From the sequence record OR887633: a DNA stretch of 64,000 nucleotides. One strand, written 5' to 3'. How positions within the stretch are numbered: the stretch's first letter is position 1; the number at the start of each line of letters is the position of its first letter. Source of the stretch: Shigella phage vb_GEC_SH_GT. This document shows, in pieces, positions 2,040 through 30,917 of the stretch. The translations under genes and the position numbers were made by a program. Below the pieces are notes generated by a model. The model was not told where the DNA came from and did not search any database. It saw only the letters and a program-made list of their open reading frames with translations.

Positions 2040-3359
2040 TCACACATAAAACACATCATAACGACCACGAGTGACACCAACATAAAGAAGCTGCTGAGCT
2101 AGTTCAGCATCTGCATAATGAATACAAGGCGTATAAATGAAAGCACGGTCTACAGACATGCCCTGCGCTTTATGGAATGTTGATGCAGGAAGTGCTTTCA
2201 CTTTACTAAACTGTGATTTAGCATCCCAAAAATCACTCCATGGAGCTTTTCCGCCTTTATTCCAATTTTTGTAAGTTTCTGCAGTTTTACCTAAAAATAG
2301 GTTAAACTTATATAGCTCTTCATCAGATGAAATTATTTTAATCTTTTCACGATAATATTCATCATCGCCGTAAGTTTCTACTGTTAAATCCCAATGACGA
2401 ATTAGATATTCTCCAGAAACACCACGAGCTTTAACAAATGTTGATGTATACTCTGCTTCTATAATACGAACTAATTGTCCGTTATTAAAAATAATTTCTG
2501 ACACAGGCTTTCCATCAATTTTATATGTTTTAATTAATGGTTCCTGCATTACAATAATTTCACCAACGATAAAATCTTTATCAGTTTCAAAAATCTTTTT
2601 ACGAATAATGCTATTTAACTTATCAACAGATTTATTCGTAAATGCCATTACGCGATTTTCAAACAAATCATCTAGTGATTTTACGATTGAAAAATAATTT
2701 ACCATAAAATCGCGTAAAGCGGTATCACCAGTAAATCCACGTACTCCATGTCCGTCAACAACTTTATCATAAATCCACTTACCGTTACGAACATCAGTAG
2801 CTACATCAATAATAGGAGCATTACTGCGTTTAACTTCAGTGAGTTCACACTGATAAAAATCTTTGTGCGTAAAGAATGGACTGATATAAGCAGTGTTTTC
2901 TCCTGGGTCAACAGGTCTAATTTGCTTATTATCGCCTATTCCAATTATAGTACACCATGGCGGGATAGTTGAAAGCAGAATTTTAAATAGCTTTCTATCA
3001 TACATTGACACTTCGTCGCAGATTAATACTCTGCATTTAGCCAAATCTGGTACTTCTTTTTGTTCAAAAAGAACGTTTTCTTCGTATGTTACCGGGTTAA
3101 TTTTAAGAATACTGTGAATAGTACTCGCTTCTTTCCCTGATAGTTTTGAAAGAATCTTTTTAGCTGCATGTGTAGGAGCTGCTAAAATAATTCCAGTTTC
3201 GCCTGTAGATATTAAGGCTTCAATGATGAACTTAGTAAGAGTAGTCTTACCAGTACCAGCAGGTCCATTAATAGTTACATGATGTTTCTTTTCTTTGATA
3301 GCCCTCATAACAATGTTAAAGGCATTTTTCTGGCCTTCGGTCAAATCATCAAATGTCAT
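2040..3359 (-). CDS. dda: Dda DNA helicase (SF1B)
   Basis: 439 aa; Walker A GPAGTGKTT, helicase motifs; length and N-terminus MTFDDLTEGQKNAF as T4 Dda. Confidence 0.95.
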   Translation of the reverse strand: MTFDDLTEGQKNAFNIVMRAIKEKKHHVTINGPAGTGKTTLTKFIIEALISTGETGIILAAPTHAAKKILSKLSGKEASTIHSILKINPVTYEENVLFEQKEVPDLAKCRVLICDEVSMYDRKLFKILLSTIPPWCTIIGIGDNKQIRPVDPGENTAYISPFFTHKDFYQCELTEVKRSNAPIIDVATDVRNGKWIYDKVVDGHGVRGFTGDTALRDFMVNYFSIVKSLDDLFENRVMAFTNKSVDKLNSIIRKKIFETDKDFIVGEIIVMQEPLIKTYKIDGKPVSEIIFNNGQLVRIIEAEYTSTFVKARGVSGEYLIRHWDLTVETYGDDEYYREKIKIISSDEELYKFNLFLGKTAETYKNWNKGGKAPWSDFWDAKSQFSKVKALPASTFHKAQGMSVDRAFIYTPCIHYADAELAQQLLYVGVTRGRYDVFYV

Positions 3360-3667
3360 CGTAAATTCCCTGCAATTGGTATACTAACAATACGCCCAGT
3401 ATCTAAAATTCGCCGATATAATCTTTGTGTGTCTACATCAGGCTTAACATGTTTAACTTCTATTTTATTAAACCAAAACTTGCGTGGAGTCTCAACTAAT
3501 CTCGGAATTCCCATACCTAAAGCTAGTTGATACTGCTCTTTAAGAGTAGTAAATACTTTATCAGCAATCTCCCTTTCAAAAAATACAGCAGGACGATGTT
3601 CATCAAGAGGAACAGGCACCGCAAATCCATCTTTATCTCTATACACTATCGCATATACATAAAACAT
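3356..3667 (-). CDS. hypothetical protein (dda.1 position)
   Basis: 103 aa ORF overlapping dda start by 4 nt (translational coupling). Confidence 0.5.
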   Translation of the reverse strand: MFYVYAIVYRDKDGFAVPVPLDEHRPAVFFEREIADKVFTTLKEQYQLALGMGIPRLVETPRKFWFNKIEVKHVKPDVDTQRLYRRILDTGRIVSIPIAGNLR

Positions 3668-3668
3668 A

Positions 3669-4415
3669 TTATCCTCGGATAAGTTTAAAAATTGAACAAT
3701 TTAGCGGGTATCCTCTTTTCAGTTTAAGTTTATCAATAAAAGACAAGTTTTGATACCGCTCTACACCTTGAATAATTTTATCACACATATCATATTGCAT
3801 TTCTGCTTCTGACAACTTTTTCACGGTTTTCCAATCTGAGCCTTTAAGAAGAACATTCAATTTAACAACTTCAGCGCCTTCTGCTATACGAGAACCATCA
3901 ATACGAGCTTTAAGTGCTATAATCGTTAGCTTAACGTCAGAGGTTTGTTTTGATTTAGAAAGCTGAGAAATGTGCTCAATTCGGTTTTCGCGTTTTTTCT
4001 GTATAGCTTTAATTTGATTATAAGTCTTTTTGATTTTAGCCCATTTCTTTTCATCTAAATTTAGTTTATGAACTTTTTTCGCAGATGAACGACCAATTCG
4101 CAAAGCAAATAAATCACGCTTTTCAATCAACTCTTCTAAAGTATAATCAGAACGAAATGTATTATACTTTTTCTTTACAGCAATAACATTCCCTTTAATG
4201 TATCCAACGTTATTATCAAAACGTTCTAATGATAATTTCTCTCCTTCAATACGATTATCAAAAGGTTCTCCCGAGTAAGCACAAACTTTCTGATCTAAAA
4301 TGTTCTTAATGTAATTGAAGTCTAAGTTAAAATCTTTAGAACGTCTTTTAGCAGATGCCTGAGTATGCTCTAGACGACGTGTAATTTTACGAATTTGATT
4401 TTTAGACAGTTTCAT
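3669..4415 (-). CDS. Srd-like protein (putative sigma-related early protein)
   Basis: 248 aa basic protein at the T4 srd position between dda.1 and modA; assignment by synteny and size only. Confidence 0.5.
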   Translation of the reverse strand: MKLSKNQIRKITRRLEHTQASAKRRSKDFNLDFNYIKNILDQKVCAYSGEPFDNRIEGEKLSLERFDNNVGYIKGNVIAVKKKYNTFRSDYTLEELIEKRDLFALRIGRSSAKKVHKLNLDEKKWAKIKKTYNQIKAIQKKRENRIEHISQLSKSKQTSDVKLTIIALKARIDGSRIAEGAEVVKLNVLLKGSDWKTVKKLSEAEMQYDMCDKIIQGVERYQNLSFIDKLKLKRGYPLNCSIFKLIRG

Positions 4416-4445
4416 ATTTTTCTCACGGACGGTTAACTACTTATA

Positions 4446-4476
4446 CTATATCATTTTTACTTCAGCTTGTAAACAA
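4446..4476 (-). promoter_or_regulatory. T4-type early promoter (upstream of srd-like gene)
   Basis: Minus strand -35 GTTTAC and -10 TATAGT-like with ~17 bp spacer. Confidence 0.5.
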
Positions 4477-4530
4477 CTTTATGAAAAATGCTTTAAAACT
4501 TTCATGGTATAATGAATCTAAGTCCTTCCA

Positions 4531-5133
4531 TTATAGATTAAATCCTTCAAAGTCAAGAGTATAGATAGTGTATGTTGAATACTTTTTATACTCGTATCTA
4601 TCCGCAATTCTAAATACACTTCCAGCTGGTATCATTACTTCTTGTTCATCTGAAACTAATTCCATATTACGATAGCGATGGCTATCTGGAAACTTAAAAC
4701 TTGGACTATATTCTTTACAACGTAGAGCTTTTATAGCATACTCCTGAAAATTAAATACCATAGGAGCTTTGAATTCAAAAATAACTTGTGTATTGTATTC
4801 TAATCCAGAAGCAAAATGCAGAGCTATATTTTTATCATATGAAGCTGATACTACTTTATCGAATGTAATAATATCAATTCCTTGATTTAACGCCTGCTTA
4901 GTCTCAACTGGAACACCTCTCCAAAGAGGTTTATCGTTTGGAACCAAACGAGATTTGATTATTTCATTTAACCAAGAATGATCGTCTGGCTTATTAGTAA
5001 TACAATGAATTAAAAGTTCAATTTCAGATAAATTAAATCCTTCAGAAAGTAATTCTTCGCGAATAGAAGCACGCACCGATGCATCCATTGATTTGATTTT
5101 AAAATCTTTTAATTGCATTGCTGAATATTTCAT
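4531..5133 (-). CDS. modA: mono-ADP-ribosyltransferase ModA
   Basis: 200 aa; R-S-E ART triad context (LWRGV, SAS, QEVMIP); position between srd and modB. Confidence 0.8.
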   Translation of the reverse strand: MKYSAMQLKDFKIKSMDASVRASIREELLSEGFNLSEIELLIHCITNKPDDHSWLNEIIKSRLVPNDKPLWRGVPVETKQALNQGIDIITFDKVVSASYDKNIALHFASGLEYNTQVIFEFKAPMVFNFQEYAIKALRCKEYSPSFKFPDSHRYRNMELVSDEQEVMIPAGSVFRIADRYEYKKYSTYTIYTLDFEGFNL

Positions 5134-5765
5134 TCAACTACCTCAATATCATACACTTTAAATGTTCCAAATGAATCGTGTAATTTTTCTTTTGAAATAG
5201 AAGTTATTTTATACTTTCCAATTGGAATCATCCATTCTTGTTCATGTACAATCATCATTAAGTTATCAGTACGTTCTGAATCTAATCCATCGGTATCTTC
5301 ATATGTATACTTAAACTCAGTATTAGGAGAAGAAAGTATAATATCGCTGATATGGTCAGAGTAATTAAAAGCTTTATCAGTTTTTAAGCGAAATATTATT
5401 TCAGTGAAATATTCAGCATAAGAAAAAGAACACGCTGTATGCAAACTAGTAGTAAATGAATCTACTCTGTTCGTTGAAAACACTTCTCCAACTTGTAAAT
5501 CTTTAATGAGTTCTTTTGTCGATTTTGATATACCACGATATAACTGATAAGGTGATTCAGTTAAATGCTTTTTAATGATTTTATTCAACTGCCGATGAAG
5601 AGCTTCATTCTTTTTGGCTTCCATACATTGCCAAAGAACTGACTGTTCAAAGTCAGTAAATTTTTCACAGACCTTTTTATACATATCATATTGAAAATCG
5701 ACACTTTCAGCTTTTATAGATAACTGTTCAACATCTGCAGGATTAATAATCATGATAGCCTCCAT
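5130..5765 (-). CDS. modB: mono-ADP-ribosyltransferase ModB
   Basis: 211 aa paralog of ModA (YRGIS, FSTNR, EQEWMIP); overlaps modA by 4 nt. Confidence 0.75.
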   Translation of the reverse strand: MEAIMIINPADVEQLSIKAESVDFQYDMYKKVCEKFTDFEQSVLWQCMEAKKNEALHRQLNKIIKKHLTESPYQLYRGISKSTKELIKDLQVGEVFSTNRVDSFTTSLHTACSFSYAEYFTEIIFRLKTDKAFNYSDHISDIILSSPNTEFKYTYEDTDGLDSERTDNLMMIVHEQEWMIPIGKYKITSISKEKLHDSFGTFKVYDIEVVE

Positions 5766-5820
5766 ATACTTCAGAAGCTATCATATCATCGTTAGAAAGG
5801 AAAGTAAACAACTTTTTGAA

Positions 5821-6003
5821 TTATTTTGCCCAGGGAGCCCAGGGCGGAGGGTCAAGATGGTATGAAGCTAGTTCTTCTAGAAGAGCATCTGGGGCTTCAA
5901 TTCCATAATTCTGTAATACTATACGGTACTCTTTCTTATAATCACTAGAATCATTCTGGATATTCGTAGAATGATTATCTTCTAACATCTCAAATAAATC
6001 CAT
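5821..6003 (-). CDS. hypothetical protein (60 aa)
   Basis: Small ORF in the modB-soc interval; no motif. Confidence 0.4.
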   Translation of the reverse strand: MDLFEMLEDNHSTNIQNDSSDYKKEYRIVLQNYGIEAPDALLEELASYHLDPPPWAPWAK

Positions 6004-6011
6004 ATTAATTC

Positions 6012-6494
6012 CTAGCGATAAAAACCAAATTGACGATTAGCTTCAATAATCTTTCTTTCTTCTTCGGACATTCTCCAGCGTAGTCCAACATCAAAATGAG
6101 CCCAGACCATCTTAATGAATGCATTTATATCTTTAATATCTTCAATAATGAATGTTTTACTTTTAGAAGGTTGACCTGCTAAATTAAGTGCTAATTTAAC
6201 TTTATCGTCTTCAAACAGGTCAAAAAGACCATATTCATGAGCTCTTTTATAGCCTTTAATAGTTAAAGCTTCAGAAGAAGAAAATGGTGAATCAGTATTC
6301 TGCAAAATATCTTCAGTATGCTTTATAATTAGAATAACATTTTCTGGATATTTTCTTTCTTTTATATCTTTAATTAAAAGATTCGGATTTTCTGCTAAAG
6401 GAATAATTAATGAGCACTTTTTGTCAAGCGTATTTACTGATTTACCTTCTTTAGACATAAATTCTATTGAATATAGTTTTGCTACTTCAATCAT
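6012..6494 (-). CDS. hypothetical protein (160 aa)
   Basis: ORF with SD GGAAA before ATG; modB-soc interval (mrh/srh region of T4). Confidence 0.5.
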
Positions 6495-6647
6495 ATGATT
6501 TCCTCTTGCCTACTAATGGACCGTCAGGAATTTTGTTTTCCTGGATATATTTCTCATTTTCTTCCATCATTTTACTGCCAATTTTAAGAAGCAAATCCAA
6601 TGCTTCATTTGCTTTAGCCTTGGCCTCTTCTAACGTCATATCTTTAT

Positions 6648-8241: not shown

Positions 8242-9088
8242 AACCATTTTCAAACCTCTTTATCATATTTATATAGTTTTCATCGGGATAACCTAGACTA
8301 ACTGCTAACTTTCTAAAATTGACATATTTAGGTTTGTTGTTATTAATCCATAATTCTCTAAGCTCTTTTTCATAATTCCATTTAAGTTGATTTCTGCGTG
8401 CAGTTTTGCTTAAAGTTTTTCCTTTAGCTTTTAAAGCTTTTTCGGATGATTGTTTTAATTTTTGAATATTTAAAACTTCTTCTATAGATAAATTATTTTC
8501 CTTTGAATACCTTATGCAAAAATCTTTTACTACGGCTATTAGGCAATTTTTGTGAGTACCTAAAATTTCTGGATTATTTTCTTCAACTAAAATTCCCCAA
8601 TATCTTCTGTAGCGAGGCATATCCCTTGAAATCCAGTCATTATACCAAAAATCAAAGTTGGAATACATGAAAGATTTTCTTTTGCGAAGAGTATCTTGGT
8701 TTATCCATTGCTCACGTTTATCAGCCCATAACTTAATAGTAAAGTCTTTCTCTAAGTCAGAAAGCTTCTTAAATTGCGAGCTATTTACTGAGGTCATTCT
8801 CTGGAATGCATTTAGCAATCCAAATCTTCCAGTTGAACATAAGAGATAGTGAACATATATGTGTTGATATATTGGGAGATATACTCTATTCCAAGGATAT
8901 ATTTTAAAATCACTATACTCAGGAAATGCGCATTTAGGAAGTATATGATGGGCTTCTGTTTTAGATTTAATGTGAGTGTTTAACTTATACTTATCTATAA
9001 TTTTTAAGTACTCATCTAAAAGTTCCCATTGCGGGAACTTTTCTTTAAGAGCAGATTTGAAATTAATATCCATTATCTTGACGTTCAA
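8237..9088 (-). CDS. free-standing HNH homing endonuclease (Mob-like)
   Basis: 283 aa; EAHHILPKC...N...H...H spacing matches the HNH motifs of ORFs 25678..26394 and 47340..48119; sits where T4 has segF. Confidence 0.7.
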   Translation of the reverse strand: MNVKIMDINFKSALKEKFPQWELLDEYLKIIDKYKLNTHIKSKTEAHHILPKCAFPEYSDFKIYPWNRVYLPIYQHIYVHYLLCSTGRFGLLNAFQRMTSVNSSQFKKLSDLEKDFTIKLWADKREQWINQDTLRKRKSFMYSNFDFWYNDWISRDMPRYRRYWGILVEENNPEILGTHKNCLIAVVKDFCIRYSKENNLSIEEVLNIQKLKQSSEKALKAKGKTLSKTARRNQLKWNYEKELRELWINNNKPKYVNFRKLAVSLGYPDENYINMIKRFENGL

Positions 9089-13259: not shown

Positions 13260-13544
13260 CTATTTTACTAGCACCAATAACTGTTTCTCTAACTTGACGA
13301 TTTTACGAAAGTATCTTTTGCATTGGCGAATCTGTCGCTTCGTAGGGCGCACAGCAAACTTAATAAATTCCACTCGACCAAATGGAGGACTTTCTTCTGC
13401 TGGAATATCTAACACCAATTCCCACGTATCTGCAACAAGTGCTTTGAATTGAGTATTTTTCCTGACATTATACGGAGTAGGTTTAAATAAAACAATGTGC
13501 ATATTATCCTCGGCAATCCACTTCGCATACTTTCTTGTCATCAA
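13260..13544 (-). CDS. hypothetical basic protein (94 aa)
   Basis: ORF downstream of dmd, overlapping it by 41 nt (start may be further in). Confidence 0.4.
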   Translation of the reverse strand: MMTRKYAKWIAEDNMHIVLFKPTPYNVRKNTQFKALVADTWELVLDIPAEESPPFGRVEFIKFAVRPTKRQIRQCKRYFRKIVKLEKQLLVLVK

Positions 13545-13686
13545 TGAAAGCTTTAACTAGTGCTTTATTAACTTCAGCATATTGAGTAGTAGCCCATTGA
13601 ACGTCATCTTTCATCATTGTGATTTCTTTAGTAAACATGCTTTCATTCTTAAACCACCCCATAAAAACTACCTTTACCAATTCCAT
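13504..13686 (-). CDS. dmd: Dmd (antitoxin against RnlA/LsoA RNases)
   Basis: 60 aa MELVKVVFMGWFKNESMF...; size and position immediately downstream of gene 41 as T4 dmd (61.5). Confidence 0.85.
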   Translation of the reverse strand: MELVKVVFMGWFKNESMFTKEITMMKDDVQWATTQYAEVNKALVKAFIDDKKVCEVDCRG

Positions 13687-13714
13687 AACAATCTCCCCAT
13701 TTAACCAACAAGAC

Positions 13715-13745
13715 TACTATACCATAGTCTTGTCAGCTTGTAAAC
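13715..13745 (-). promoter_or_regulatory. T4-type early promoter upstream of dmd
   Basis: Minus strand GTTTACAAGCTGACAAGACTATGGTATAGTAG. Confidence 0.6.
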
Positions 13746-15172
13746 TAAAATTTTAATTCATTTGCCAAAGCATCTAACTGAGCTCGAGCCGATTCATTTC
13801 TTTGATAGCGATTCTGCTCAGCTTGAATCTGCTGTGAACCTGCCACTTCGTTCACTTCAGTTGGAGTAGAATCTTGTTCAATTTCTACCCATTTCTGATT
13901 TCCTTTTTGAACACCCATCAAAAACTTATTCCATTTATTCTTATCACCATATCGTGATTTGATTTGCTTAATTAGTTGTTGTTCAGCAGCTGCTAACTCC
14001 TCGGTTTCAATGACCGCAAGCATAAAATCGGCTGTTGCTGGAAGACCGGCAGATTCTGCAATATCGCTCATGTTAACATCAGAAGAATCCCAAGCTTGCT
14101 TACCAACCTGTGCTGCAGTCCAAAGAACAGTTTCGGTTTCAACAGCCAGAGCACGCAATTCTTCTGCGATGGCTTTAACAGTTGTGTAACTATTTTCCGA
14201 ATAAACTCTGATGCGGCAAGATTTACAAATACCCAGATAGTCAACAATAATGATTGTTGGAACAAAATTCTTCTTGAGCTTCAATTCGTTTAAAAGAGAT
14301 CGAAATGTATTAGCGTCTGCTCCACCAGTAGGATACTGTTTAACGATTAAACGACCGAGAGTAGATTTCTCACGCCATTTTTCCATTTTTCCTTTATACT
14401 CAGCATAAGAAATATGCCCATCATCAATGTCATCAAGAGAAACATCAAGCATATTAGCATCAATACGCTTAGCACAAACTTCTTCTGCCATTTCCATGGA
14501 AATGTAAAGAACATTATGTCCGAGCTGCAAATAATCTGCTGCCAATGAACACAGACCTAATGACTTACCAACGTTAACACCAGCCATTAAAACGTTCAGT
14601 GTTCCAGTTTCAGCTCCGCCTTTAGTAATTTTATTTAGAATTTTGAGTTTAAATGGAACCTTACGAGCTTTATTCATATAAGATAGCCAACGTGCTTCGT
14701 AGTCATCCATCCAATCATGACCAACGTAGCTATCAAATGAAATTGATAATGCTTGGCGCATGATGTCAGGAATAGCACCTACATCTGGCATTTTCTTATT
14801 TCGTTTTTCCGGAGGAAGCTCAGCATTAGTTTGAATTTCAATTATTTTAGATGTGGCGTTAAACATCGCCCTTTGCTGAACATATTTTTCTGTTTCTTTT
14901 ACTAACCAGCTGTGGTCTTCCGGAGAATCGGTTAGTTTTGAAATAAGTGTTTTTACACCAGAATATTCTGTTTCAGTAAATGAACTATTTTCTAATGCAA
15001 CATTTAACGCATTAATAGATGGAACGCTATGATACTCGTTAACATGAGATTTAATTAATTTGAATGTATTTTTAGCTGGACCACTTTCAAAATATTCTGA
15101 ATCCATATATGGCCAAACTTTTGAAAAATAAGCTTGATCAAATATGAGATGAGAAAGAATAATTTCTACCAC
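13745..15172 (-). CDS. 41: replicative DNA helicase gp41 (DnaB family)
   Basis: 475 aa; Walker A GVNVGKS, DnaB-like C-terminal domain. Confidence 0.95.
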   Translation of the reverse strand: MVEIILSHLIFDQAYFSKVWPYMDSEYFESGPAKNTFKLIKSHVNEYHSVPSINALNVALENSSFTETEYSGVKTLISKLTDSPEDHSWLVKETEKYVQQRAMFNATSKIIEIQTNAELPPEKRNKKMPDVGAIPDIMRQALSISFDSYVGHDWMDDYEARWLSYMNKARKVPFKLKILNKITKGGAETGTLNVLMAGVNVGKSLGLCSLAADYLQLGHNVLYISMEMAEEVCAKRIDANMLDVSLDDIDDGHISYAEYKGKMEKWREKSTLGRLIVKQYPTGGADANTFRSLLNELKLKKNFVPTIIIVDYLGICKSCRIRVYSENSYTTVKAIAEELRALAVETETVLWTAAQVGKQAWDSSDVNMSDIAESAGLPATADFMLAVIETEELAAAEQQLIKQIKSRYGDKNKWNKFLMGVQKGNQKWVEIEQDSTPTEVNEVAGSQQIQAEQNRYQRNESARAQLDALANELKF

Positions 15173-15181
15173 ACTTACTCC

Positions 15182-15544
15182 TTAAAAGAATTTAAATTTT
15201 TTCTTTGACCTTTTATTAAATGCATCTTGTAGTTGCATTGTAATACATTTTTCTACATGAGGAGCTAACTCAGCTTTTCTTTCTTGGTCAAGAACAGCAA
15301 AGTCCATTACGACTTTTCCATCAACCCAATCTAATTTTGTCACATACACAATGTGTGTAGAACCGTCTTCTAGTTTAATGACAATCTCCTGGATAACATT
15401 TTCCATGGCAGATTTAATTATCTTAAGAGATTCATTAAAAAGACGTTCTTTTCTTTCTTCTTCCCCCTCCGAAGAGGGGGATTCGTCGATAATTTCTAGA
15501 TCTAAATCTAAATCATCTTTATTCATTAAATTCTTCCATATCAC
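15182..15544 (-). CDS. 40: gp40-like protein (head vertex assembly chaperone position)
   Basis: 120 aa acidic protein between uvsX and 41; assigned by synteny. Confidence 0.6.
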   Translation of the reverse strand: MIWKNLMNKDDLDLDLEIIDESPSSEGEEERKERLFNESLKIIKSAMENVIQEIVIKLEDGSTHIVYVTKLDWVDGKVVMDFAVLDQERKAELAPHVEKCITMQLQDAFNKRSKKKFKFF

Positions 15545-16700
15545 TTAACTGATCTAGGTCAGTTTCTAAATCAGCCGCTGATTTACTTTTACTTTCTGGA
15601 GATTTAAATTTTTCAACCTTTGAGTTAATCAATTCATCAACTTCAGCTTCAACAATTTCATTACTATCAATAGCACCTAACTGATAAGCACGTTTAATAG
15701 CATCTCGGAATGGCTGATGCTTAAATAAAGGACCCCAGAATGTAGTGCAATTGGTATCTTTTGCACGCCAAGATTTTTCTTCGCGAATCATCTCACCGGT
15801 TTCTTCATCAAGAAATTCACGAGCATACCAACCATTTTTAGGTTTTACCACAAATCCTAATTCAAGAGCCATATCTAACAATCCAGAATAAGGATCGATA
15901 CCACCGTCAAATTTAACATCAATAAAGAATTTACTTTTTTCTTTGACGGTACGAGATTTTTCTACATTTAGAACAAATTGATACCCCTGAAGATCAGAAC
16001 CATCTTTAATCTGGCGCTTACCGATAATGAATACAGTATCAGCCGAATACATTACGCCTGTACCACCTGTCATCACGGTTTTACTAAACATTTCAATTGT
16101 TTCAATTGTATGGTTAACCGCAACACATGGAATGTTTTTAATACTAAAATAAGGAGTAACAATACGGAATAATGACTTCAGCGATTTAGCACGAGTCATA
16201 TCTGCCACAGATTTTTCATTCAAGGCATCTTCCGTTTCTTTCTTAGAAGCCATATTACCGATTGAGTCGATGAATACAATAACCTTTTCACCACGCTCAA
16301 TAGCTTCAAGCTGATTCACCATATCAATTTTCAGCTGTTCAACTGACTGGATTGGTGTATGAATTACTCGTTCCGGGTCAACTCCCATAGATCGCAAATA
16401 AGCTGGAGTAATACCAAATTCGCTATCATAGAATAAACAAACCGCATCAGGATATTTGTTCAAATACGCCGCAACCATAGTCAAAGACATATTTGATTTA
16501 AAGTGTTTAGAAGGACCTGCAAAAATGGTTAAACCAGACTGCATACCACCGTCAATCGCGCCGGAAATAGCGATATTGAGCATTGGAATTTTTGTACGAA
16601 TTACATCCTTTTCGTTAAAGAATTTAGATGTAGTCAGTTCAGCAGTCATTTTAGAAGTGGAAGCTTTAATCAAACGGGATTTTAAATCTGCAATAGACAT
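15519..16700 (-). CDS. uvsX: UvsX recombinase (RecA/Rad51 family)
   Basis: 393 aa; Walker A GPSKHFKS, RecA core, acidic C-terminus. Confidence 0.95.
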   Translation of the reverse strand: MSIADLKSRLIKASTSKMTAELTTSKFFNEKDVIRTKIPMLNIAISGAIDGGMQSGLTIFAGPSKHFKSNMSLTMVAAYLNKYPDAVCLFYDSEFGITPAYLRSMGVDPERVIHTPIQSVEQLKIDMVNQLEAIERGEKVIVFIDSIGNMASKKETEDALNEKSVADMTRAKSLKSLFRIVTPYFSIKNIPCVAVNHTIETIEMFSKTVMTGGTGVMYSADTVFIIGKRQIKDGSDLQGYQFVLNVEKSRTVKEKSKFFIDVKFDGGIDPYSGLLDMALELGFVVKPKNGWYAREFLDEETGEMIREEKSWRAKDTNCTTFWGPLFKHQPFRDAIKRAYQLGAIDSNEIVEAEVDELINSKVEKFKSPESKSKSAADLETDLDQLSDMEEFNE

Positions 16701-16777
16701 TCATTTTTTCCATAGGCATCATTATATTTTCCTCACTGGTTAAAGATAGAGTAATTATAACACAATAAATTTAGGCA

Positions 16778-17626
16778 TTAATCAACTGCTATTGGATGAA
16801 TAGCATTAAACTTATGAAACGCTTCTGATTTTTCTTTGCGCGAAACACACATGCGAAGAACCTTTAATGGCTCGTCTTCTTCACCTAATGATTTTCGTTT
16901 TTCAATATTAGAAGTTTTCCAACGAGCTTGCTCTGGAAATTCTCTATTGATTTGCTCAAGAGCTCTATTATGTTTTGAATTACTACGAATTGAACTACAT
17001 CCACCCGGAGCCTGCGCTTTTCCAGACACAACCAGATATTTGAACAAGGCCAAATGCGGATAACCTTGATTAATTAAATTGAGAAATGCATACATATCTT
17101 CGCATAAATCAATTTTTCCATACCCAATTTGTTCTGTTGTAAGTTTTCCAAGGTCATACCATGTATTCGTGAATCCATATGAATTTTCACGATAATTACC
17201 CCAAGATGAAGTAATTTTAAAAATTGGTAAACGAGCATGACCATGATAATACCCGCAATCCATGGCATCTTCAACGTATTGAATCAATTCATAGAACTGT
17301 TCACCAGTTAACTGATTAATTTTATCTACGCAGCGACGATCATCTTTCTTTCGCATTGAACTCATACGAATAGTAGTATCATCATCAATCATCCAAATTC
17401 GCTGACCTGCATACATATCAGTAATCGCTTTACGAGTACCAGCAATTCCATTGACATCATCAGGAATAGTTATAATTTTAGCTCTAGACCCATAAGCATC
17501 ATAATAAGCTTTTTCTTCGTGTTCACGTACTACAATATGTGGTTCATAATCAGATGGAAACATATCAAGGGCAGAAACTGCCCCTACGCGTTGATAGCTT
17601 GGAATTACAAATTGAATCATTTCCAC
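16778..17626 (-). CDS. putative glycosyltransferase (GT-A/GT2-like) at the beta-gt locus
   Basis: 282 aa; N-terminal VIPSYQR and hydrophobic-DDD motif (WMIDDDTT); unlike T4 beta-gt; between uvsX and 42. Confidence 0.55.
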   Translation of the reverse strand: MEMIQFVIPSYQRVGAVSALDMFPSDYEPHIVVREHEEKAYYDAYGSRAKIITIPDDVNGIAGTRKAITDMYAGQRIWMIDDDTTIRMSSMRKKDDRRCVDKINQLTGEQFYELIQYVEDAMDCGYYHGHARLPIFKITSSWGNYRENSYGFTNTWYDLGKLTTEQIGYGKIDLCEDMYAFLNLINQGYPHLALFKYLVVSGKAQAPGGCSSIRSNSKHNRALEQINREFPEQARWKTSNIEKRKSLGEEDEPLKVLRMCVSRKEKSEAFHKFNAIHPIAVD

Positions 17627-18357
17627 TCACCGTTATAATCTTTTTTCGCAATATGAGTTTCGCCAGTTTTCCACCAATGGTCAACCAAATAAAAATGACG
17701 AGAATACACATGAAGGCTTCCGACATTCCATATAATGGAACCTGCTTTATACTGACGAGTTGAATCACCTGCATTCAAATCAGATACTAATTTATCTAGT
17801 ACGTATTTTTGCCATGCATAATCATTACGGAATCCGAAGACCACGTCATTTGAACGCATGTTTACTACTGCATTGACTTTCTTGTCACGAATCAGGTACT
17901 GTACTGTATTCGTACACATGAAATCTGACATACCATCTTTGTTGTAGTCAAACTGCATGGATGGACGAGTATAAATCATGATACCACGTCGAGAATCAGG
18001 ATTTTGACCAAGTTCAGCTAAACACATATCATACTGAGCATAGTTATCTTCTGACCAGATGGCCCAACCATAATTTGAGTTAATTTCGCCTTTAGAAGAT
18101 GCTACCTGCTGCCAAATCTTGGGTGTTTCACCTGGAATATCTTTAACAAACAGACTTTGAGACTTATACCATTCAAGTTCACGCTGAATGTATTCATCAT
18201 TAAGAGCGCCAAAAATAAAATGTTCATCTGCTACAAATGATGCACCAATAATTTCAATAGTTTTAACACCGGTTTTATCAATTACGAAATCTTTTTCCTT
18301 TAATGCAAGACCCAAATCAAGACGGATTTCTTCAACTGTCATATAATCGTTAATCAT
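17617..18357 (-). CDS. 42: dCMP hydroxymethylase gp42
   Basis: 246 aa; thymidylate-synthase-like fold signature; T4 gp42 length. Confidence 0.9.
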   Translation of the reverse strand: MINDYMTVEEIRLDLGLALKEKDFVIDKTGVKTIEIIGASFVADEHFIFGALNDEYIQRELEWYKSQSLFVKDIPGETPKIWQQVASSKGEINSNYGWAIWSEDNYAQYDMCLAELGQNPDSRRGIMIYTRPSMQFDYNKDGMSDFMCTNTVQYLIRDKKVNAVVNMRSNDVVFGFRNDYAWQKYVLDKLVSDLNAGDSTRQYKAGSIIWNVGSLHVYSRHFYLVDHWWKTGETHIAKKDYNGEWK

Positions 18358-18364
18358 TTAAACC

Positions 18365-18514
18365 TCAATTGATGCATTCATATTTAATTTGTAACAGTAA
18401 TAAACTCCAACCTATAATAAGTGGCGGAATCATAAGAGGAACTGTTACGCTATAGTATATACTTATTATAATCATCAAGATTAAAAGCAATACTGCTAAA
18501 ATTTTGCTTTTCAT
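18365..18514 (-). CDS. small hydrophobic membrane peptide (49 aa)
   Basis: Hand-translated MKSKILAVLLLILMIIISIYYSVTVPLMIPPLIIGWSLLLLQIKYECIN; ATG overlaps imm stop (ATGA); SD GAGAAGGA. Confidence 0.4.
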   Translation of the reverse strand: MKSKILAVLLLILMIIISIYYSVTVPLMIPPLIIGWSLLLLQIKYECIN

Positions 18515-18762
18515 TCCTTCTCTCTGATGATAATTACTTGATTTTGCTGTACAGATTTTTTAGTTTCACCCGCAATTGACCAAATAAATGTAATAAACCA
18601 ACCAATGATTGACCAGTTAAACAGTAAAGATGTGAAAAAGATTCCTACTGTCGATTTTGACCCACGCATCAAGGCGATGAACCATGGAAGCATGTATATA
18701 ATAATAGCCAACACGCCTGAAACTAAAACCATAAAAATTGAACCTGCTACTAAAGTTTCCAT
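18511..18762 (-). CDS. imm: Imm (immunity to superinfection) membrane protein
   Basis: 83 aa, two TM helices; size and position next to 42. Confidence 0.85.
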   Translation of the reverse strand: METLVAGSIFMVLVSGVLAIIIYMLPWFIALMRGSKSTVGIFFTSLLFNWSIIGWFITFIWSIAGETKKSVQQNQVIIIREKE

Positions 18763-18769
18763 GTTTTCC

Positions 18770-19150
18770 TCACTTAGTCAAATTTTTTACACATGAATTA
18801 TAAGAATTCACTACATACTCCATCGGAGCATTTTTACCAGTACGCCATTGGTAATTATTAGCCCAATTTGCCCAAAGTTCAGCGCAGTAGCTTTCAATTT
18901 TTTCTTCGCGTGTAATTACATCTGAATTACGATATGCTTGGGCAGATTCATCTGGACGAATAGCTTCGTCAAAATTCGCCTGCATTTGTTCTACTGTCTG
19001 TTTTGGAGCCTCTTTATAGCACTTGACGTTAGGATTATAAAATTTGCTTGAACAGTTTACAATTTTTCCTACATCAGACTGATTTACTACCGGTCCTTGA
19101 GCTACACACCCAGTAAGACCCAATGCAATAACCAAAATAGCGATTTTCAT
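18770..19150 (-). CDS. putative lipoprotein (126 aa)
   Basis: Signal peptide with lipobox LGLTGC; several Cys in mature part. Confidence 0.6.
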   Translation of the reverse strand: MKIAILVIALGLTGCVAQGPVVNQSDVGKIVNCSSKFYNPNVKCYKEAPKQTVEQMQANFDEAIRPDESAQAYRNSDVITREEKIESYCAELWANWANNYQWRTGKNAPMEYVVNSYNSCVKNLTK

Positions 19151-19160
19151 AACAATTTCC

Positions 19161-19391
19161 TCAAATACAAGTAGTAATTACTCCAGTAGTGCTTACACAG
19201 GTATTACCTAATTGAACACCCAACGTTCCATTAGTATTCATATGAAGATTATCATCAATTTTTGTTGATACTTTACCATTCATGTGAATAACAGTATTAG
19301 ATTCAATCACATTCTGAGTGCCATTTTCAATAAATGGAACAGTTGCTAATGCAACTAAACACACTGCTAAACATCCATAAACAATTTTCAT
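19161..19391 (-). CDS. small secreted protein (76 aa)
   Basis: Start trimmed from TTG artefact to MKIVYGCLAVCLVALATVPF signal peptide; early promoter 19424..19455. Confidence 0.5.
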   Translation of the reverse strand: MKIVYGCLAVCLVALATVPFIENGTQNVIESNTVIHMNGKVSTKIDDNLHMNTNGTLGVQLGNTCVSTTGVITTCI

Positions 19392-29714: not shown

Positions 29715-30917
29715 TTATTTTGTAATAATGTCAAACTGTTCTTTAAAGCAGAAGCTTGAATCTTGGTGCTGATACAAAAATTCATAAGCTTTTTCACGTT
29801 CACGGTCATAAAGAGCTCGGTCAGATGACAGTTCTTTAATACGTTCAAATGTTGATTCCATGTCATTTTCATCAAACCAAACGATACCGCTATCATGAGA
29901 AATTAACGGAGTGTTATCAACACGGAATTTTAAATTTTCACCAGTAGATTTCCAAAATACTGGAATTGTTCCACATGCGCCAAGCTCGAGATGAGTATAT
30001 TCTAAAGAACGCTGCAGATATTTTTTGTCCAACTTGCTCAGCTGATAACCAAATCCGGATTTACTCATGCGTTCAAGCATTTCGCTATTTACATAACGGT
30101 CGAGAATTTGCGTTGGCAAATTAGGAGCAATTTTAATTTGGTCTACCTGATGAAGACGATAATACTCATATGGAATTCCTTTTTCTTTAATAGGAATGAA
30201 CGCTGGAGAACGTTCCAGACCTTCCATAATAGTACTTAGTCCTGCAGGTTTAAGATGTTTTTCGTGAAAATCAAACATCTGATAAAATCCTTTCCATGTA
30301 GTAGTACGACCAATCCAACGGTTGATATTCATGTTAATTTCAGAAACATCTTTCCAGTAGGTTGATCGAACCTTCGCAATATCCATAGGAGGCTGAAAGT
30401 TATATACGGTCGGTGCTTCTTCAATATCATCAAACAAAGAAACAGTTTCCGGATACCATTCTTTCATTAAAACTTTATTAAAATCACCATTATCAGAATG
30501 GCTAAAAATAACATCAGCCCGACGAACAGTTTCTTCTAATCCCAAATTTCGACGCAAAGAAAGAGAAGAATGGTCATGTTGATAAACTACAACACGAACC
30601 GAAGGTTTAATGTTATCAATAATTTTTTTATAGTTATTAATAGTGTCTTCTTCGACTGAAGTAGCAGGAACTGAATTGATAACTAGAATATCACAATCAT
30701 TTACCAGCTTAAGTGTTTTATCGTATTCTTTTGCCAATAAAACCGGAATTGAAAATGACTTATAATCATGCGCGCAATTACGGGTAAATGATTTATCTTT
30801 AGCATAAACCAAAGTTACTTCATGACCATTTTTAATAAACCAATCACGCTGCTCAAGAGAAAATTTAGTTACACCGCAACCTTCAAGACCTCGAGCCATA
30901 AAAATGCATACTTTCAT
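29715..30917 (-). CDS. agt: DNA alpha-glucosyltransferase
   Basis: 400 aa; N-terminus CIFMARGLEGCGVTKFSLEQRDWF and C-terminus as T4 alpha-gt. Confidence 0.95.
   Translation of the reverse strand: MKVCIFMARGLEGCGVTKFSLEQRDWFIKNGHEVTLVYAKDKSFTRNCAHDYKSFSIPVLLAKEYDKTLKLVNDCDILVINSVPATSVEEDTINNYKKIIDNIKPSVRVVVYQHDHSSLSLRRNLGLEETVRRADVIFSHSDNGDFNKVLMKEWYPETVSLFDDIEEAPTVYNFQPPMDIAKVRSTYWKDVSEINMNINRWIGRTTTWKGFYQMFDFHEKHLKPAGLSTIMEGLERSPAFIPIKEKGIPYEYYRLHQVDQIKIAPNLPTQILDRYVNSEMLERMSKSGFGYQLSKLDKKYLQRSLEYTHLELGACGTIPVFWKSTGENLKFRVDNTPLISHDSGIVWFDENDMESTFERIKELSSDRALYDREREKAYEFLYQHQDSSFCFKEQFDIITK

Follow-up and report, generated by a model that had tools for sequence, protein, structure and literature searches.

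The closest described counterparts of the gene analysed here are the ba-gt genes of phages T2 and T6, which were reportedly cloned and sequenced by Winkler and Ruger in 1993 (NAR 21:1500); the enzyme is EC 2.4.1.28, glucosyl-DNA beta-glucosyltransferase. Both phages lack beta-gt, and their own enzyme attaches a second glucose in beta linkage to alpha-glucosyl-5-hydroxymethylcytosine (alpha-glucosyl-hmC); the product is gentiobiosyl-hmC, to which about 5% of hmC is converted in T2 compared with about 72% in T6, and about 25% is bare (PMC6024577; PMC13216743; bioRxiv 10.64898/2026.02.25.707755). T6 delta-g-gt DNA carries about 75% alpha-glucosyl-hmC (bioRxiv 10.64898/2026.02.25.707755). Pairing of a TAGT enzyme with an alpha-GT or a beta-GT is the common combination among phages, and that of alpha-GT with beta-GT, found in T4, occurs in only 6 of 753 GT-encoding phage genomes (PMC13216743). 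The TAGT gene is syntenic with T4 beta-GT, and LC-MS of ten T6-like Tequatroviruses revealed alpha-5-gentiobiosylmethyl-dC and no beta-glucosyl species (PMC13390438). T4 beta-gt (PF09198) and ba-gt occupy the same slot between uvsX and gene 42, use UDP-glucose as donor and form a beta-linked product, but their sequences are unrelated, and the GT-B fold of the former contrasts with the GT-A fold of the latter. Their acceptors also differ: ba-gt acts on alpha-glucosyl-hmC and T4 beta-gt on bare hmC, and T4 DNA is therefore only monoglucosylated.

In the window, a 64,000-nt stretch of Shigella phage vb_GEC_SH_GT (OR887633), this slot holds a minus-strand gene at 16778..17620 (280 aa plus stop codon) that we identify with high confidence as a T2/T6-type beta-glucosyl-HMC-alpha-glucosyltransferase of the Pfam family TAGT (ba-gt, also g-gt or ggt). 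The protein matched PHROG 842, "beta-glucosyl-HMC-alpha-glucosyltransferase", over residues 2-277 (E 4.4e-89). Residues 5-209 matched positions 2-205 of the 205-position profile PF20691 (TET-associated glycosyltransferase, TAGT) at 37.8 bits, above the gathering threshold of 27.5 bits, and PF20691 is precomputed on 9 of 11 database homologues. The Pfam search returned neither a GT2 nor a PF09198 match for this protein. Amino acid identity is 98% to both the T2 and the T6 protein, without internal gaps relative to T2, and the six substitutions relative to each amount to no difference of kind; length, position between uvsX and gene 42, overlap with gene 42 and the partner alpha-gt are all the same. 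The substitutions lie outside the columns invariant in a 10-sequence family alignment. They affect R/H11, S/T23, K/R92, I/V101, G/R/H106 and P/S251, plus Y/N40 and D/G55 relative to T6. The allele combines residues typical of T2 and of T6 with private ones: it has D55, Y40 and an intact DDD like T2, and R11 and P251 like T6 (280-aa numbering).

Such genes are widespread. A tblastn search of 50,697 phage records matched ba-gt in 689, 471 of them at 95% identity or more, and about 200 matches at 60-80% identity came from T4-like phages of Klebsiella, Enterobacter, Salmonella and Citrobacter. The feature annotated beside the match is usually a dCMP hydroxymethylase, under this name or as thymidylate synthase, and many of the matching records already carry the name beta-glucosyl-HMC-alpha-glucosyltransferase. 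T4-like coliphages usually carry ba-gt at this site; gene, fold family, position and product are already known from publications, and hundreds of sequenced phages carry it. The interpretation put forward in the earlier note, namely that a GT-A-type glycosyltransferase replaces T4 beta-gt, is supported in every element, and the finding is correct but ordinary.

The flanking genes define the slot. Downstream lies the uvsX recombinase gene (15519..16700, minus strand; PF21134, PF00154), which bounds the variable interval on that side, and upstream gene 42, encoding dCMP hydroxymethylase (17617..18357, minus strand; PF00303, 59 bits), whose DNA is 95% identical to that of T4 gene 42 and which is annotated alike in neighbouring phages. 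The Pfam matches of these flanks bear out the proposed location between uvsX and 42. DNA homology to T4 (93-95%) ends at 16688, just inside the uvsX start, and is found again from 17635, just within the 3' end of gene 42; the variable interval thus corresponds to 16689-17634 of the window and to 4557-6497 of the fetched T4 region. Between uvsX and 42, T4 has 1.9 kb comprising the homing endonuclease gene segA and beta-gt, versus 0.95 kb here. By contrast, the window aligns collinearly and without a break to both T2 and T6 across 13279-19150, at 95.8% DNA identity. Over a 12-kb stretch, its gene order also matches that of Tequatrovirus phages such as Shigella phage SH-1, PP01 and ime09, at 96-98% identity. 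When the whole 64-kb window was searched by tblastn, T4 beta-gt gave no match even at E<=10, in agreement with the claim that an unrelated protein fills the beta-gt locus. A T4-like alpha-gt had also been proposed, and the minus-strand gene at 29715..30917 indeed encodes a DNA alpha-glucosyltransferase of GT-B fold (PF11440 AGT, 782.7 bits, E 5.2e-236, full-length profile match). segA, which in T4 lies between uvsX and beta-gt, is absent from the interval; the sole segA-like signal is a weak 49-aa tblastn match at 8252-8398 (E 3e-6).

The earlier note had described an open reading frame at 16778-17626 encoding 282 aa. The uninterrupted minus-strand frame is real and yields 282 aa if begun at GTG, but translation almost certainly begins at the ATG at 17620 (17620-17618), which shortens the protein by two codons to 280 aa beginning MIQFVIPSYQR. 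Read directly, the letters around the start are GGT GAG TGG AAA TGA TTC AA, in which the ba-gt start codon and the gene 42 stop codon TGA (17619-17617) form an ATGA overlap on the minus strand (17617..17620). We prefer this start because of the overlap and because the T2 and T6 records annotate it in the same way; in T2 the annotated 4-nt overlap is identical (CDS 4283-5125 and 5122-5862 of the fetched AP018813 region). The arrangement suggests that translation of ba-gt may be coupled to that of gene 42.

Codon changes relative to T2 comprise 43 synonymous and 6 non-synonymous, and relative to T6, 49 and 6; codon position 3 holds 44-48 of about 51-57 nucleotide differences. This synonymous excess and the concentration of differences at position 3 indicate, at the level of sequence, purifying selection on the ba-gt frame, which is more than a chance reading frame. 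Overlapping open reading frames (e.g. 16836-17063 on the plus strand and 17074-17274 on the minus strand) were rejected as mechanical by-products, as the substitution pattern by codon position fits the ba-gt frame only.

The motifs that had been noted, VIPSYQR near the N-terminus and a hydrophobic stretch followed by DDD (WMIDDDTT), proved to be genuine family signatures in both alignment and model. The alignment comprised 10 sequences with members down to 31% identity, taken from one large protein search that returned 12 clusters. D79, D80 and D81, encoded by GAT GAT GAT (17378..17386, minus strand), are invariant across this entire range, as are P7, S8, Y9 and R11. In a confident AlphaFold2 model (mean pLDDT 80.7, pTM 0.82; one disordered loop, residues 131-149), W-M-I-D79-D80-D81 directly follows the hydrophobic beta-strand 74-77, the canonical position of a DxD motif, and general knowledge of GT-A enzymes suggests that D79-D81 participate in binding of the metal and the nucleotide sugar. 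E174-D175 ('CEDMY'; 17096..17101, minus strand) is a candidate catalytic-base motif of an inverting GT2-like enzyme, by conservation (D175 invariant, E174 at least 90% conserved) and by analogy to the ED/TED motif of GT2 enzymes.

The model predicts a single Rossmann-like alpha/beta/alpha domain resembling solved GT-A structures, consistent with the GT-A assignment proposed earlier. A Foldseek search of viral models retrieved the ba-gt of Klebsiella phage PKO111 (TM 0.90) and, after it, several TAGT-domain phage proteins. The T6 enzyme, modelled with AlphaFold3, likewise has a GT-A fold and groups as sister to GT2 (PMC13216743). Sequence searches of the PDB with the single protein and with the 10-sequence profile found no relative with an experimental structure; matches to TLR4 and lethal factor were at chance level (E of at least 0.1). 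GT2-family GT-A enzymes such as TarP (6h1j), BcsA (4p00) and SpsA (1h7l) share 7-16% sequence identity with ba-gt and use a polysaccharide, lipid or teichoic acid as acceptor, whereas that of ba-gt is a sugar on DNA; unlike this group, ba-gt has no membrane domain. The full-length profile match places it with the PF20691 TAGT enzymes of phages and bacteria, and it has its fold in common with the TAGT-domain proteins of many phages. Within this family the T-even subgroup is distinguished by its partner, a thymidylate-synthase-type dCMP hydroxymethylase (gene 42) rather than a TET/JBP dioxygenase, and by its substrate, an already glucosylated base. The protein would thus be a small single-domain GT-A enzyme in which the DxD and the E174-D175 pair fit a metal-dependent inverting mechanism. 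Nothing contradicts the ba-gt identification, for which the fold is a predicted one.

By analogy to T2 and T6, the product of gene 42 would make hm-dCMP and thereby give rise to phage DNA containing 5-hydroxymethylcytosine. The alpha-gt product (29715-30917) would then attach glucose from UDP-glucose to hmC through an alpha linkage, and ba-gt would add a second glucose from UDP-glucose to the first in beta-1,6 linkage, yielding gentiobiosyl-hmC. The latter reaction is probably metal-dependent via the DxD motif and probably inverting, as a beta linkage is formed from an alpha-linked UDP-glucose donor, with E174/D175 as the likely base. The present analysis provides evidence on gene identity, synteny, fold, motif conservation, purifying selection and beta-gt absence; activity and DNA product in this phage would follow from the literature on T2, T6 and T6-like phages. 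The 98% identity to the T2/T6 enzyme, the synteny, the presence of alpha-gt and the absence of beta-gt all argue for the predicted second sugar on alpha-glucosyl-hmC and for a pattern unlike that of T4.

Two other readings of the gene are extremely improbable. The enzyme could differ in specificity from its T2/T6 counterparts, using another sugar donor or glycosylating hmC directly; TAGT homologues do occur with alpha-GT, with beta-GT or alone (288 of 753 GT-encoding phage genomes), and the family as a whole is probably functionally diverse (PMC13216743). However, the near-identity to T2/T6 with all six substitutions outside invariant columns, the same synteny and the presence of alpha-gt as substrate supplier speak against such a change. 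Equally remote is the idea that the gene is an inactive remnant. Public T6 records with ba-gt lesions imply that its loss is tolerated, at least in the laboratory, yet the copy in the window is full length, keeps every residue invariant in the family alignment and the ATGA overlap with gene 42, and shows a strong synonymous excess.

Accepting the gene as a T2/T6-type ba-gt, the extent of diglucosylation is a separate matter. The T2 and T6 enzymes are separated by 5 codon differences and, in the T6 record used, a deletion of one codon, and yet their gentiobiosyl-hmC contents (5% vs 72%) are fourteen-fold apart. The same enzyme might therefore produce a low, T2-like level here, with a few percent gentiobiosyl-hmC, mostly alpha-monoglucosylated bases and about 25% bare hmC instead of a T6-like ~70%, and the window protein does have D55, Y40 and the full DDD of T2, next to the R11 and P251 of T6. 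We regard this outcome as rather unlikely: in all 10 of 10 Durham Tequatrovirus phages with alpha-GT and TAGT, gentiobiosyl-hmC lay between about 40% and about two thirds (PMC13390438), which suggests that substantial gentiobiosylation is the norm. The low level of T2 looks like an exception, and the determinant may lie outside ba-gt. More doubtful still is that the substitutions in this allele (R/H11 to P/S251) include a determinant of the diglucosylated hmC fraction. If they did, the phage could have an intermediate or distinct sugar pattern and a different sensitivity to Brig1-, BapA/Brig3- and GmrSD-type defences; this would change a known system in degree without making it a new one.

A functional ba-gt predicts virion DNA in which gentiobiosyl-hmC is accompanied by a certain amount of alpha-glucosyl-hmC and of bare hmC, and beta-glucosyl-hmC is absent. 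The sugar pattern governs which host defences act on this phage: Brig1 targets alpha-glucosyl-hmC, BapA cannot strip gentiobiose, and GmrSD and BrxU cut DNA with any of these glucosylated forms (PMC13216743; bioRxiv 10.64898/2026.02.25.707755; PMC13390438). The assignment is of use for annotation and for the choice of therapy phages and adds nothing to current knowledge.

The public records used for comparison have defects of their own. In T6 record MH550421, ba-gt (3138-3980 of the fetched region) contains a TAG amber codon at codon 10, and the CDS is therefore annotated from M20, without the first strand. In T6 record AP018814 (4135-4974 of the fetched region), a 3-nt deletion in the GAT GAT GAT run leaves DD, not the invariant DDD. 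The gene is intact in T2 and in the window. These lesions could be sequencing errors or mutations of laboratory stocks, and they matter since T6 is the reference phage for gentiobiosyl-hmC. The automated annotation of AP018813 (T2) and AP018814 (T6) is unreliable: ba-gt appears as 'hypothetical protein', gp41 helicase as 'major capsid protein', gp40 as 'baseplate hub subunit' and a small ORF as 'tail tape measure protein'.

A scan of 16500-18600 returned 12 promoter-like sites (9.9 expected) and 2 terminator-like sites (1.0 expected). The 77 bp that separate the stop codon of ba-gt from the start of uvsX contain TATAAT on the minus strand (16754-16759), which may be the -10 element of a uvsX promoter; the sigma-70 consensus scan, in which a -35 element was required, did not report this site. 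Between imm.1 and the DNA polymerase gene 43, a 233-bp segment (19151-19383) is present in the window and absent from T4 and T6. Its minus-strand ORF (19161-19391) encodes 76 aa (PHROG 4189, function unknown), the N-terminus of which is hydrophobic and resembles a signal peptide, and T2 has an unrelated 83-aa ORF at this spot. Judged from these comparisons, 19151-19383 appears to be a second variable slot, small and near that of the glucosyltransferase.
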